NCBI GenBank assembly: GCA_027076005.1
Contig: JALTHX010000150.1
Span: 1 to 24,554, forward strand
Direction: 5' to 3'
Length of the DNA stretch: 24,554 nt
Source: Caldisericaceae bacterium
GTDB lineage: Bacteria > Caldisericota > Caldisericia > Caldisericales > Caldisericaceae
Of this stretch, positions 2,701-22,539 are shown piece after piece. The first letter of the stretch is position 1. Each line of letters opens with the position of its first letter. The notes below the pieces were generated by a model. It saw only the letters and a list, made by a program, of their open reading frames with translations, made no database searches and was not told where the DNA came from. The position numbers were made by a program, and so were the translations under genes.

Positions 2701-3177
2701 TCAAAATATAGCAAATTGACCAAATGGCCAATACAGTATAGCATTATTCCTCTTGTTATGCAAAAGCATTTCTTCCTTTTTGTTGTAAAGCTTATAATAA
2801 TTAATTTTTATATCCTCTTGTTTATTTCTTGGAGTTTCATTAACATCCAACAGTGTATATACACTTTCAATTGTTTTAAAAAGCATTGAAAAAAGAGAAG
2901 CAAGAGATACACTGCCAAGAGCAAAATTCACATTGACACTTTTTAGCCGGTTTCTCTCGATAAGGTGACTACTATTTATAGCTAATCCTCTTTTTAAATC
3001 ATTTGCTAAATCTTCCTTAAAAGTTTCTTTTGCAGGTACTTCCCCTTTTTTGAGTAAAAGAGAAAGTTCTGCTAATCGCAAGAGTTCCCCGTCATCCTTA
3101 ATGTTGGGATAATCGGGTTCTTTTTCAGCAAGAAGCTTGCTTAAAAATTGCTCTAACTTTTCTTCCTTACTGAGCAT
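2701..3177 (-). CDS. Putative single-pass anti-sigma factor, 158 aa
   Basis: Overlaps the ECF sigma stop by 11 nt; GAGGAG SD; charged helical N-terminus (PAKETFKEDLANDL), then one moderately hydrophobic stretch (VNVNFALGSVSLASLFSMLF). Function inferred from position and topology. Confidence 0.6.
   Translation of the reverse strand: MLSKEEKLEQFLSKLLAEKEPDYPNIKDDGELLRLAELSLLLKKGEVPAKETFKEDLANDLKRGLAINSSHLIERNRLKSVNVNFALGSVSLASLFSMLFKTIESVYTLLDVNETPRNKQEDIKINYYKLYNKKEEMLLHNKRNNAILYWPFGQFAIF
2705..2713 (-). promoter_or_regulatory. Extended -10 element (TG-C-TATATT), putative second promoter of the SLH-SBP operon
   Basis: Minus strand TGCTATATT about 15 nt upstream of the AAGGGAGGTG SD; no good -35 at 17 nt. 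Confidence 0.45.
2735..2763 (-). promoter_or_regulatory. Sigma70-type promoter for the SLH-SBP operon
   Basis: Minus strand TTGCAT-N17-TATACT with TG at the extended position; lies inside the 3' end of the anti-sigma-like ORF. Confidence 0.65.
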
Positions 3178-3733
3178 TTATTTTCTCCTCCACTAACTTC
3201 CTAAGTTTTCTTAATGCCCTGAACTGCAAAACTTTTACGGCACCAACAGTTTTATCAAGAGAAGTCGCTATTTCTCTAAGACTCATCCTTTTAAAAAACC
3301 TCATTTTCAAAATATCTCTGTATTGATCAGGCAATTCTGTTAAACATTTAGCAATTGTTTCATCAATTTCTCTTCGCTCGATTGTAATATAAGGGTCTTC
3401 GATCAGAGGATCCAAAACCTTGTTCCATGTTTCCTCAAAAGGGAGAACATCTATTCCCGCATTCTTTCTAAAAAAATCTCTTATTATATTTCTCTCAACC
3501 GCATACATCCAGATATCAAGCCCACCATCTCTTTTACTCTCAAATTTGCTTAATCCTCTCAACGCTTTAAAAAAAGTTTCCGACGTAACATCTTCCGCCT
3601 GTTCCCTGTTTCTCACTTTCCTATAGGCATATCTGTATACCCTTGGAAAAAAAATCCTGTAAAACTGCTCAAAAGCACCTTCATCACCTTTTACTATTTT
3701 ATCAACAAGTTTTTTTTCTTCTTCTATTTTCAA
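3167..3733 (-). CDS. ECF-type RNA polymerase sigma factor, 188 aa
   Basis: TTG start with AGGTGAGG SD; region 2 GDEGAFEQFY..RVYRYAY..AEDVTSETFFKA; region 4 LPDQYRDILKMRF..SLREIA..TVGAVKVLQFRALRKLR. Confidence 0.93.
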   Translation of the reverse strand: MKIEEEKKLVDKIVKGDEGAFEQFYRIFFPRVYRYAYRKVRNREQAEDVTSETFFKALRGLSKFESKRDGGLDIWMYAVERNIIRDFFRKNAGIDVLPFEETWNKVLDPLIEDPYITIERREIDETIAKCLTELPDQYRDILKMRFFKRMSLREIATSLDKTVGAVKVLQFRALRKLRKLVEEKINAQ

Positions 3734-19939: not shown

Positions 19940-20814
19940 ATTCTCTCGGCCACCCTTAATTTAGCACTTCTTGAGCGCCTATTAGAAAGAAGTTCTCCTT
20001 CCAACGGCCTTATCACTTTTTTGTTTATTCGGTTTACCCTTTTGTCCTCTCTAAATGCTTTTTTTACAACTCTATCTTCAAGAGAGTGGTAAGAAATTAC
20101 TGCAATCCGAGCATCTTGAGCAAGTATGTCGGGAGCATCCTTCAAAAACATCTCTAAGCTTCCTATTTCATTATTCACAAAGATTCGTAATGCCTGAAAA
20201 GTACGTGTAGCAGGATGAATTTTTCCTCTTTTATGATGATATACGTTAGCTACAATATCTGCAAGTTCCTCTGTAGTTTCTATCTTTTTCTTTCTCCTTC
20301 TATAATCTACTATTGCTTTTGCAATATGCCGGGAGAGTTTTTCCTCGCCAAATTTGAATATAATATCCGCAAGTTCATTTTCAGGAAAACTGTTTACAAC
20401 ATCTGCTGCCGTAAGTTCAGTATGAAAACTCATTCGCATATCAAGGGGCCCATTCTTAATAAAACTGAATCCTCTTCTGTTATAATAGAGCTGCAAAGAT
20501 GAAATCCCTAAGTCGGCAAGTATCCCATTTACCGCGGGTATGTTATATTTTTTTTGTATTGCCTTTATATTTAAAAAATTATCATTTACAAGAAAAAAAT
20601 TATCTCCTGCATTCTTTAACCGTTTATGCGCTATTTTTAAAGCTTCTGAGTCTTGATCTATTCCATACAAAAAACCCGAAGGACCTATAGCCTTAAGTAT
20701 TTCAACGCTATGCCCCCCTTCTCCTACGGTGCAATCAACTACAGTATCTCCTTTTTTGAGATTTAAATTTTCTAATACTTCATTTACTAAAACCGGTGTA
20801 TGTAATATTTCCAT
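19936..20814 (-). CDS. rsmH: 16S rRNA m4C1402 methyltransferase RsmH (MraW)
   Basis: HTPVLVNEV, VDCTVGEGGHS, DLGISSLQL..RGFSF..GPLDMRM, HPATRTFQALRI.VN.E, ISYHSLEDR, NRRSRSAKLR. Start ATG 20814 (probable leaderless) or 20823. Confidence 0.97.
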   Translation of the reverse strand: MEILHTPVLVNEVLENLNLKKGDTVVDCTVGEGGHSVEILKAIGPSGFLYGIDQDSEALKIAHKRLKNAGDNFFLVNDNFLNIKAIQKKYNIPAVNGILADLGISSLQLYYNRRGFSFIKNGPLDMRMSFHTELTAADVVNSFPENELADIIFKFGEEKLSRHIAKAIVDYRRRKKKIETTEELADIVANVYHHKRGKIHPATRTFQALRIFVNNEIGSLEMFLKDAPDILAQDARIAVISYHSLEDRVVKKAFREDKRVNRINKKVIRPLEGELLSNRRSRSAKLRVAERI

Positions 20815-20821
20815 TGCTTTC

Positions 20822-20827
20822 ATTATA
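20822..20827 (-). promoter_or_regulatory. -10 box TATAAT 7 nt before rsmH ATG (putative leaderless dcw promoter)
   Basis: Minus strand TATAAT-GAAAGCA-ATG; no SD; -35 only TTTTAT at 17 nt. Confidence 0.5.
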
Positions 20828-20851
20828 ACTTATTAAGTCCTGATATAAAAG

Positions 20852-21179
20852 CCCGAGTAAAGGATAAGCCGGATTCTGTTGTGCGAACGCTGTGGTCATT
20901 TATCTAATGCGACCAACCCGATGGTATGGAGAGAGCATCCTTTGCCATCCTATTTGGTCTTGCTCCGGGTGGGGTTTACCATACAACGCACTGTTACCAG
21001 AGCGTCTGGTAGTCTCTTACACTGCCTTTTCACCCTTACAGAGAATCTCTGCGGTTTATTTTCTGTGGCACTTTCCCTAAGGTCACCCTCGCCTGGATTT
21101 CCCAGGCACCCTGCTCTCCGGAGTCCGGACTTTCCTCAAGGCATAAACAAATGCCTTGCGACCACCTCCGTTACTCGGG
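20852..21179 (-). ncRNA. rnpB: Bacterial RNase P RNA, type A architecture, about 328 nt, apparently lacking P18
   Basis: GAGGAAAGTCCG and ACAGAATCCGGCTTA (P4); P1 CCCGAGTAA/TTACTCGGG; P3 AAGGCAT/ATGCCTT; P8 GCCTGG/CCAGGC; P9 with GTGA loop; AGTGCCACAGAAAA; AAGGGTGAAA; GGTAAACCCCACCCGGAGCAAG; P6 GAGAGC/GCTCTC. Confidence 0.97.
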
Positions 21180-21180
21180 A

Positions 21181-21897
21181 TTATTTAATTTCTTCCGGAA
21201 AGTAAAGAATCTTTCCGCACACCTCACATCTTATTAACTTTTCCCCTTTACTATCTTTAAGCTCCTCTAAGACCTCCAGGGGGAGCATTGCACCACAATT
21301 TAAACAAGCCCCTTTTTCTATAGGAGAAATCGCTCCATAAGGGAAGCTATCTTTAATTTTCTCATAACGAATCATTATATCTTCGGGGATTTCCTTTGCA
21401 ATTTTTCTGAATTCTTTTTTAAGCTTCGCGGTTTCATTCTTTATCTCTTTGCCAAGAAGTTCCCTTTCTTTATGTATACTTTGCAACCTCTCTTCCTGTT
21501 CCGCCGTTTCTTTCTCTAATTCCTTAATCTGTGACTCTTTTTCCTTTATTGCAGTTTCAGTAAATTCAAGGTTCTTCTCTAACTCCTCGGTTTTAGCCTC
21601 AAGGTTTTCTTTCGTTTTTTTAGCCGCTCTAACTTCTTTGCTTGTCTTAAGTTTATTTCCGTTTAAAAGATCCGTAATACCTTTTAGCTGATCCTTACTC
21701 TCGTCAATATCTCTTCCAATTTCCCTTTTCCTGTTGATAAATCCGGATATCGCAGATTTTAACCCCTCTATCTGATTCTGGATATTTTCAATTTCTTCTT
21801 TTATCTGTAGTTCTTGGTCAATTTCTTTCATTCTTGCTTCTTTATCACGCAAACTTTTTTCTTTTTGTTCAAACTTGTAAAGTAACTTTATATACAT
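21181..21897 (-). CDS. Coiled-coil protein with C-terminal C4 zinc ribbon (COG1579 / zf-RING_7-like)
   Basis: Long E/K-rich coiled-coil, then GACLNCGAMLP...LIRCEVCGKILY. Start set to ATG 21897 (GGAGGTG SD). Confidence 0.9.
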   Translation of the reverse strand: MYIKLLYKFEQKEKSLRDKEARMKEIDQELQIKEEIENIQNQIEGLKSAISGFINRKREIGRDIDESKDQLKGITDLLNGNKLKTSKEVRAAKKTKENLEAKTEELEKNLEFTETAIKEKESQIKELEKETAEQEERLQSIHKERELLGKEIKNETAKLKKEFRKIAKEIPEDIMIRYEKIKDSFPYGAISPIEKGACLNCGAMLPLEVLEELKDSKGEKLIRCEVCGKILYFPEEIK

Positions 21898-21916
21898 TGA
21901 CACCTCCGATTAACAG

Positions 21917-21991
21917 TGGTGGGCCCGCCCGGGTTCGAACCAGGAACCAATTGGTTATGAGCCAACTGCTCTACCGTTGAGCTACGGGCCC
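21917..21991 (-). tRNA. tRNA with CAT anticodon, most likely tRNA-Ile2 (lysidine type); elongator Met not excluded
   Basis: GGGCCCG-TA-GCTC-AACGGTA-GAGC-A-GTTGG-CTCATAA-CCAAT-TGGTT-CCTGG-TTCGAAC-CCGGG-CGGGCCC-A-CCA. G1:C72 excludes the initiator; C4:G69, U12:A23 and A73 favour Ile. Gene certain, isotype about 0.65. Confidence 0.95.
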
Positions 21992-22036: not shown

Positions 22037-22075
22037 TAACTTTTAAAGTTTGCTTTTCAAATTGTATTTTTAAAC

Positions 22076-22081
22076 TATAAT
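22076..22081 (+). promoter_or_regulatory. -10 box TATAAT 5 nt before the ATG at 22087 (putative leaderless)
   Basis: TATAAT-AAAAT-ATG, no SD upstream. Confidence 0.45.
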
Positions 22082-22086
22082 AAAAT

Positions 22087-22539
22087 ATGAATAAATTAAC
22101 TATTAGGTCAGACGGTAAAAAAATTTCAGTAAGTGTGGACAAAGGCAAGTTATCTATTATTTCAAAAAACGAAACTACTGTAATTCCATTAGACAAAATA
22201 AATAAAGTTTATATTGACAATAGAAAAAACAAATATAAACCGGACCTTTTCTTCATTGTGTATACATTATTCAGCTCTATAATCGGGATAGGTATTTTAT
22301 ACCTGCTTTTTAAAAACGAAAGAAAAATTAATATGTTACAAACAGGAATAGCCTTTATTATTATAGTAGGTTTCGCGACTCTACTAATGATTATCGCAGC
22401 AAACAGAAAATCGTCACTTTTTGTAATATATGAAAATAAGACATTGGAAATTCCATTAGACAACCGTGACAAAATAGACCAGCTAATAAAACTTCTCAAA
22501 AACTTGGGAATTAAAATTTTATACTCAAAACAAGGCTAA
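22087..22539 (+). CDS. Hypothetical membrane protein with two central TM helices, 150 aa
   Basis: Beta-rich N-terminus, TM LFFIVYTLFSSIIGIGILYLLF and TM GIAFIIIVGFATLLMIIAA; its stop overlaps the convergent rseC stop by 4 nt. Confidence 0.65.
   Translation: MNKLTIRSDGKKISVSVDKGKLSIISKNETTVIPLDKINKVYIDNRKNKYKPDLFFIVYTLFSSIIGIGILYLLFKNERKINMLQTGIAFIIIVGFATLLMIIAANRKSSLFVIYENKTLEIPLDNRDKIDQLIKLLKNLGIKILYSKQG

Follow-up and report, generated by a model that had tools for sequence, protein, structure and literature searches.

The gene cluster for division and the cell wall (dcw) of Escherichia coli and Bacillus subtilis is headed by mraZ with its promoter Pmra, and its genes run from rsmH to ftsZ. 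Little is known of how dcw is regulated beyond model organisms, and no dedicated regulator other than MraZ has been described. Here we describe a dcw cluster from the phylum Caldisericota that keeps the same rsmH-to-ftsZ order but differs from the canonical one in three ways: mraZ is found neither in the genome nor elsewhere in the family; the slot before rsmH is taken by rnpB, the gene for RNase P RNA, as the last member of a cassette with a tRNA(CAU) gene and a zinc-ribbon protein gene; and rsmH has no Shine-Dalgarno (SD) sequence, with a -10 box at the distance typical of leaderless mRNAs. The stretch analysed, referred to below as the window, is a whole contig of 24,554 nucleotides (JALTHX010000150.1) from a Caldisericaceae metagenome-assembled genome (MAG; GCA_027076005.1; 1.57 Mb in 316 contigs, 80% complete).

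Several described systems resemble parts of this locus. In Pseudomonas aeruginosa PAO1, by locus numbering, rnpB (PA4421.1) lies next to mraZ (PA4421) at the head of dcw; there, however, mraZ is kept between rnpB and rsmH, and presumably neither a zinc-ribbon gene nor a tRNA gene lies by rnpB. E. coli has mixed operons led by tRNA genes (metY-rimP-nusA-infB and thrU-tyrU-glyT-thrT-tufB), in which the tRNA is co-transcribed with the downstream mRNA and freed by RNase P together with other endonucleases; unlike these, the transcript predicted here would also end in a cistron for the RNase P ribozyme itself. In genes with leaderless mRNAs, known from Actinobacteria and Deinococcus-Thermus, the start codon lacks an SD and is preceded at 6-8 nt by a -10 hexamer, whereas in the present case such an mRNA is predicted, from sequence only, for the dcw operon of Caldisericota. 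Finally, genes of the DUF164 family have a recurrent neighbourhood: the legend to Fig. 3B of Pereira et al. 2011 puts genes for tRNA-Met and RNase H next to flgZ homologues and, in Borrelia burgdorferi, the RNase P RNA gene downstream of the flgZ homologue (PMC3372290). In the literature searched, no paper discusses rnpB with rsmH or mraZ, or rnpB with COG1579, and the linkage appears only in that legend. Judged by gene content and order, the locus described here is a variant of two arrangements known before, namely the neighbourhood of DUF164 genes with rnpB and the dcw cluster.

rnpB in the mraZ slot before rsmH

All elements of the cassette and the dcw cluster behind it lie on the minus strand, in the order promoter, tRNA(CAU), zinc-ribbon gene, rnpB, rsmH and the remaining dcw genes, which bears out a preliminary description of this DNA made from the sequence. 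The cassette promoter, of sigma-70 type, spans 22036-22009 (-35 TTGACT at 22036-22031, a 16-nt spacer and -10 TAAAAT at 22014-22009; 10/12 matches in a promoter scan) and would give the tRNA a leader of ~10 nt. The tRNA gene, with an encoded CCA, was found at 21991-21917 by ARAGORN and by the Rfam tRNA model (69.8 bits). A GGAGG SD sequence at 21907-21903 follows 9 nt after the CCA and 5 nt before the ATG of a zinc-ribbon open reading frame (ORF) of 238 amino acids (21897-21181; ATG at 21897, stop codon at 21183-21181). The CCA-to-ATG distance is 19 nt, and the 13 nt given previously for the distance from the CCA to the SD region is approximate. One T separates the stop codon from rnpB (21179-20850), a class A RNase P RNA gene that matches Rfam RF00010 over 21177-20850 and whose P1 helix folding extends to 21179, in agreement with the 1-nt gap first reported. 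The U-run TTTTATAT at 20850-20843 begins one C past the closing P1 helix (C-TTTT-ATAT at 20851-20843). It is followed by a TATAAT -10 box at 20827-20822, located by promoter scan 7 nt before the ATG of rsmH (also called mraW), the first dcw gene (20814-19936; Pfam PF01795, 1.2e-101). The start common to rsmH orthologues, as judged by their N-termini, is ATG 20814 (MEILHTPVL), 35-36 nt past rnpB, and the earlier figure of about 30 nt was right within a few bases; an in-frame ATG further upstream, at 20823, is peculiar to the source genome.

We consider it probable that these elements form two tandem transcription units, a tRNA-zinc ribbon-rnpB operon and, behind it, the dcw cluster read from its own leaderless promoter. 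The transcript boundaries and processing steps given throughout are predictions based on sequence comparison.

No match to mraZ (PF02381) above the cut-off was found in a search of the whole source MAG. We then surveyed synteny and mraZ in 93 Caldisericota genomes, which fall into families f1 (Caldisericaceae, the family of the window) to f7. mraZ was found in 0/25 other f1 genomes, most of them >90% complete, and likewise in 0/11 genomes of f4, 0/13 of f5 and 0/2 of f6 (0/51 in total). It lies directly before rsmH in 22/23 genomes of f2, 9/9 of f3 and 9/9 of f7 (40/41), where, as in all counts given here, the related genomes compared are not independent samples. In all f4, f5 and f6 genomes that could be assessed, and in five f1 genera, rnpB is the next gene upstream of rsmH in the same orientation; this is never so in the mraZ-bearing families f2, f3 and f7. 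By this distribution, rnpB in the mraZ slot is a trait of the clade and a conserved variant of gene order, without a proven new control circuit. The synteny survey that the preliminary description had called for supports its view to this extent, but it also revealed that the adjacency has been lost in at least four f1 genera.

In these genera (g2, g4, g5 and g8) the cassette shares its strand with rsmH and lies ~25.5 kb downstream of the start of that gene; a further f1 genus, g9, has rnpB and rsmH on different contigs. Because g2, g4 and g8 form one clade in the RsmH tree (97/86), the relocation of the cassette away from rsmH is probably a single event. Relocated cassettes were seen at G009:C1:1126217-1151681 and likewise in G003, G013, G006, G020 and G024, Caldisericum being included, and two tRNA-Pro genes follow them. 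In Caldisericum exile, a cultured species with a complete genome, rsmH and the cassette are likewise 25 kb apart.

The sister families f4 and f5 have a different layout. In f4, a separate promoter serves rnpB, and the conserved HTPV motif of RsmH follows the end of rnpB by 1-15 nt; the sole canonical in-frame starts of rsmH lie inside rnpB, either as an ATG in the conserved GAAAUGA or, in two genera, as a TTG in the 3' strand of P1 (the rsmH frame opens within rnpB at L013:1783-1826, L029:1782-1825, L037:1775-1818 and in L083-L086). In genus g16 of f5, the last nucleotides of the P1 3' strand form an SD-like GAGG 5-7 nt before the rsmH ATG (L088:1450-1470, L089:1566-1585), and these nucleotides would be contested there between the mature RNase P RNA and an rsmH mRNA that can be translated. 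T-runs after rnpB are mostly missing in f4, with the exception of L029 (TTTT), and in f5-g16, the groups in which rsmH overlaps rnpB. These layouts leave no space for a promoter, so that in f4 and f5-g16 rnpB and rsmH would seem bound to share a transcript, unless a promoter lies inside rnpB. Genus g14 of f5 has TATAAT-N7-ATG, like Caldisericaceae, and f6 has an AT-rich spacer of 200-260 nt between rnpB and rsmH. The differing signals in f4, f5, f6 and f1 suggest that the expression of rsmH behind rnpB has been solved in different ways, and for f4 and f5 the idea of read-through from rnpB is credible on these grounds.

It could be argued that rnpB and rsmH adjoin as a neutral leftover of genes having been lost and rearranged, with no regulatory meaning in any lineage. 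In agreement with this, the adjacency is broken in half of the Caldisericaceae genera with no visible change in the rsmH promoter, and in the RsmH tree the mraZ-less f4 groups with the mraZ-bearing f2 (88/89 support), a grouping suggestive of repeated mraZ loss. A single clade of mraZ-less families, however, was not rejected by the approximately unbiased (AU) test (p = 0.07), and both one and two losses of mraZ fit the data. Furthermore, the adjacency is kept over four families, the translation signals of f4 and f5 overlap rnpB, and rnpB is found at the head of dcw again in Pseudomonas. We therefore regard a neutral relic as quite unlikely.

The tRNA-zinc ribbon-rnpB cassette as a predicted precursor

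To describe the upstream unit, we compared 21 cassette loci, 17 from Caldisericaceae (10 genera) and 4 from Cryosericum. The string tRNA(CAU)-zinc ribbon-rnpB was found in 17/17 and 4/4 of these loci, respectively, and by coordinates the zinc-ribbon gene adjoins rnpB in 43/43 genomes of the two families in which both genes are whole. The sole promoter conserved in position lies upstream of the tRNA in 21/21 loci (13-20 nt, ~40 nt in Cryosericum) and is of the TTGACT-N16-TAAAAT type in 17/17 Caldisericaceae loci and TTGACG-N16-TATAAT in the 4 Cryosericum loci. A GGAGG 3-10 nt past the CCA is kept in all family members. The zinc-ribbon stop codon lies -11 to +10 nt from the 5' end of rnpB, the extreme being Cryosericum, where the coding sequence (CDS) overlaps rnpB by 11 nt, and no conserved promoter was found directly before rnpB across the 21 loci of the two families. 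In all lineages compared, the cassette ends at rnpB. Because there is one conserved promoter and the gaps are only -11 to +10 nt, leaving no room for internal promoters or terminators in a gene order that is kept, a common precursor is the most likely source of the tRNA, the zinc-ribbon mRNA and RNase P RNA. The single precursor originally proposed is thus supported by comparison as far as rnpB; its extension into dcw found no support in Caldisericaceae.

A different explanation for the tight packing is genome compaction, with rnpB read from a promoter of its own that lies within the zinc-ribbon CDS, towards the 3' end. The window does contain a TTGCAA-16-TATAAT site at 21401-21374 (10/12 match), but this site is missing even within the same genus. 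Five or six orthologues have TTGCGA/TTGTGA-17-TATACT ending ~25 nt before rnpB; this second site is not in the window and coincides with the codons of the invariant CEVCGKILY. Both sites would leave a 5' leader in need of processing, and in Cryosericum the CDS itself overlaps rnpB. In favour of such an arrangement, rnpB has its own promoter near its 5' end in f3, f4, f5 and f6. As the main route to rnpB in Caldisericaceae, a promoter within the CDS was rejected, the sites being unconserved and overlapping invariant codons, and we consider this explanation very unlikely.

In the arrangement that we favour, the first unit would begin at the strong sigma-70-type promoter ~10 nt before the tRNA, and would be a hybrid operon of stable RNA and mRNA. 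Its transcript would carry the tRNA, the SD and zinc-ribbon CDS, and then RNase P RNA 1-3 nt past the stop codon. RNase P would trim the 5' end of the tRNA, and cuts past the CCA and at the junction of the CDS and P1 would separate the three products. The protein subunit gene, rnpA, is encoded in the source genome (PF00825, 80.6 bits, contig C81), so the tRNA leader should be a substrate of the enzyme whose RNA is encoded downstream. A precursor containing both RNase P RNA and its substrate, as first proposed, is consistent with this gene and with the conserved sole promoter before the tRNA.

The RNase P RNA itself matches RF00010 with 262.8 bits, against a gathering score of 100, over the full model (1-367) with the P4 strands included, and it is the sole match, that is, the one rnpB copy, in the MAG. 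Its P1 helix was recovered in both minimum free energy and centroid folds. The P18 hairpin is missing from this RNA, 23 consensus positions being deleted in the Rfam alignment (20850-21177). On one RNA molecule, translation at the zinc-ribbon stop and folding of the ribozyme would, from the geometry, be mutually exclusive, since a ribosome on the stop codon, 1 nt before P1, must unwind the 5' strand of that helix.

Regarding the other processing enzymes, RNase Y is encoded in the source genome, and RNase E/G had no match in three genomes (G000, G002 and G009), two of which are >=98% complete. As judged from these three gene sets, the enzymes for RNA processing resemble those of Bacillus and Thermotoga. 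With no RNase E/G match, RNase Y, and possibly RNase J or J-type enzymes, would be the likely agents of the cuts past the CCA and between the CDS and P1. For RNase Z, as a candidate for the cut past the CCA, the search gave metallo-beta-lactamase matches below the cut-off only.

To identify the cassette tRNA, we compared it with all tRNAs of the MAG and searched two complete relatives by pattern. It does not belong to the initiator type: it has G1-C72 in place of a 1:72 mismatch, and its anticodon stem (GUUGG/CCAAU) lacks the three G-C pairs (GGG/CCC) at the base. An initiator-type tRNA(CAU) gene is present on a separate contig (C74), and in the two complete relatives the pattern search returned only the initiator and the cassette type. 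The cassette tRNA is therefore predicted to be either elongator tRNA-Met or the lysidine-containing tRNA-Ile2.

The predicted rsmH promoter and the end of rnpB in Caldisericaceae

In Caldisericaceae, rsmH has no SD while the neighbouring zinc-ribbon gene has a perfect one. We found TATAAT or TATACT 6-8 nt before the rsmH ATG in 10/10 Caldisericaceae genera, mostly with an upstream TGn, and the box is also kept where an unrelated gene, not rnpB, adjoins upstream. The copy in the window had been overlooked by the preliminary description. Genome-wide, the spacing between TA[TA]AAT and the ATG of ORFs of >=100 codons has a peak at 6-7 nt (34 and 23 cases, against ~12 elsewhere), some 2-3 times the background, and because of this peak we take leaderless starts to be a real class in the source organism; it suggests some tens of leaderless genes. 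The position of the -10 hexamer, 6-8 nt ahead of the start, the missing SD and the conservation of both together point to a leaderless rsmH mRNA made from its own promoter. Leaderless initiation needs a 5'-terminal AUG, and translation of rsmH should therefore depend on a local transcription start. The second of the two units would accordingly start at an extended -10 promoter within the 35-nt spacer.

Another leaderless candidate lies back to back with the tRNA promoter: a 150-amino-acid ORF without Pfam match on the plus strand (region 22054-22539; ATG at 22087, 5 nt past TATAAT), with the promoter TTTTCA-16-TATAAT at 22054-22081.

At the other side of the spacer, a T-run directly past P1 was found in 15/17 loci of the family, whether rsmH or tRNA-Pro comes next; in five Caldisericaceae genera the T-run is followed by the two tRNA-Pro genes, which have their own promoter (TTGCAA-16-TATAAT). 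We interpret the U-run as a terminator-like end of the cassette, at which transcription of the first unit would mostly stop behind the long-range P1 helix. It is not an intrinsic terminator of the usual kind, a local GC-rich hairpin with a U-tract, but a long-range helix followed by C-UUUU-AUAU. No canonical hairpin terminator was found on the minus strand between 20800 and 22040 except for two weak 5-bp stems in the CDS, which are within the expectation from shuffled sequence. The earlier statement that terminators are absent is accurate for hairpins but missed the TTTT run at 20850-20847 directly past P1. An end of transcription at 20847-20851, which the preliminary description had held to be incompatible with its proposal, is plausible from this layout. 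Cryosericum has a canonical GC hairpin terminator after rnpB; in L021 (1821-1920) and L031 (1820-1920) it is tandemly duplicated together with the last ~12 nt of rnpB.

These observations bear on the proposal of one long precursor running from the tRNA promoter into dcw, in which stable-RNA promoter activity would stand in for repression by MraZ. Its appeal comes from the survey described above, in which rnpB precedes rsmH in all assessable f4, f5 and f6 genomes and five f1 genera and never in mraZ-bearing families, from the f4 starts within rnpB and the f5-g16 SD within P1 with no T-run after it, and from the P. aeruginosa locus with rnpB next to mraZ (PA4421.1/PA4421, locus numbering); it is also consistent with the lack of a canonical hairpin terminator in the window. 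In Caldisericaceae, however, the conserved -10 box at leaderless distance and the lack of an SD imply that a local start is needed for rsmH translation, the rsmH promoter is kept with the cassette 25 kb away, which indicates that adjacency is dispensable in this family, and the T-run past P1 is kept whatever gene is next. We therefore consider the long precursor unlikely, and the suggestion that read-through replaces MraZ control is not supported for Caldisericaceae.

Four points weigh against two tandem units. The U-run has four Us only and its stem is a long-range helix closing a 330-nt RNA, so that substantial read-through is possible. An AT-rich upstream element belonging to the next promoter would explain the T-run equally well. 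The coupling of rnpB and rsmH that seems obligatory in f4 and f5 may persist in Caldisericaceae too. Lastly, some orthologues have TTGCGA-17-TATACT hidden in the conserved CEVCGKILY codons before rnpB.

The rest of the dcw cluster (ftsL to ftsZ, 19939-4653, minus strand) is complete. By Pfam its order is rsmH-ftsL-ftsI-murE-murF-mraY-murD-ftsW-murG-murC-murB-ddl-(ftsQ-like)-ftsA-ftsZ, the ftsQ position being held by an ORF of 200 amino acids. After ftsZ and one unassigned ORF of 287 amino acids, a gene for an ECF-type sigma factor with regions 2 and 4 follows on the same minus strand (3167-3733).

The zinc-ribbon protein and the meaning of the arrangement

The protein encoded between the tRNA and rnpB has a coiled-coil hairpin and a C4 zinc ribbon, CxxC-x22-CxxC at C198/C201/C224/C227, whose four cysteines are invariant among orthologues. 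As a single sequence it stays below the Pfam gathering scores (PF24481, 20.3 bits against 27; PF02591, 18.5 against 29.1). A profile of 12 orthologues compared with solved structures gave as its top three matches 3NA7 (HP0958, 6.7e-11), 4ILO (CT398, 1.8e-10) and 5Y05 (MSMEG_4306, 3.7e-4), and the alignment with 3NA7 is collinear over the full length (residues 3-234 against 7-235). The zinc-ribbon motif of DUF164 proteins has been defined previously (PMC8469502), and the cassette protein has the corresponding CxxC-x(18-26)-CxxC after a coiled coil of ~180 amino acids, with co-linear similarity. Because of the structure matches of the orthologue profile and the invariant CxxC-x22-CxxC, we assign it by sequence similarity to the DUF164/COG1579 family (HP0958-FlgZ, CT398-CdsZ and MSMEG_4306). 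In two pathogens, members of this family bind sigma-54 and flagellar or secretion factors (PMC3372290, PMC8469502).

Two cassettes typical of Caldisericaceae were found in public MAGs labelled Desulfurellales, L038 (JALTDI010000112.1) and L045, whose zinc-ribbon proteins are 99% and 55% identical to that of the window, respectively. The label of these contigs is probably the result of mis-binning or mislabelling.

Outside Caldisericota, we found 7425 representative clusters of distant zinc-ribbon homologues at E <=0.001. In 18/80 unrelated metagenome loci, the homologue is followed by rnpB in the same orientation at a distance of 90-530 nt; 15/15 of those tested were confirmed by Rfam, compared with 0/5 motif-negative controls. 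Relative to the neighbourhood of Pereira et al., which shares the coiled-coil hairpin and C4 zinc ribbon architecture, the Caldisericaceae cassette lacks the NIF3, dnaG, rpoD and RNase H genes; its tRNA, which shares the strand, lies 19 nt ahead of the ATG, and its rnpB begins 1-3 nt past the stop codon. Taken together, these comparisons identify the cassette as a minimal local form of a widespread DUF164(COG1579)-rnpB neighbourhood that is functionally unexplained. The linkage hints that the family may act on RNase P or on tRNA or RNA maturation, beyond its association with sigma-54 and secretion factors.

A bolder model, to which we attach little probability, is that in the mraZ-less Caldisericia dcw was captured by rnpB, the transcript being either processed to the ribozyme or read through as rsmH-dcw mRNA. 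If true, the two fates would exclude each other in f4, where the rsmH start lies inside the 3' end of rnpB. In Caldisericaceae, formation of P1 before the U-run would act as a conditional terminator, on which ribosomes that terminate 1 nt ahead of P1 might also have an effect. The dosage of division genes would in that case still reflect the synthesis and folding of RNase P RNA, on top of the leaderless promoter.

Under the two-unit arrangement that we consider probable, the two units would be neighbours in the window because rnpB has long stood directly before rsmH in the mraZ-less branch of Caldisericia. In Caldisericaceae this adjacency would no longer be needed for dcw expression, and read-through would be an extra input at most. 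Either way, in this branch of a little-studied phylum mraZ is gone and rnpB stands in its place, and the expression of rsmH appears to have been solved differently by lineage, with rsmH overlapping rnpB, taking its SD from P1 or having a leaderless promoter.

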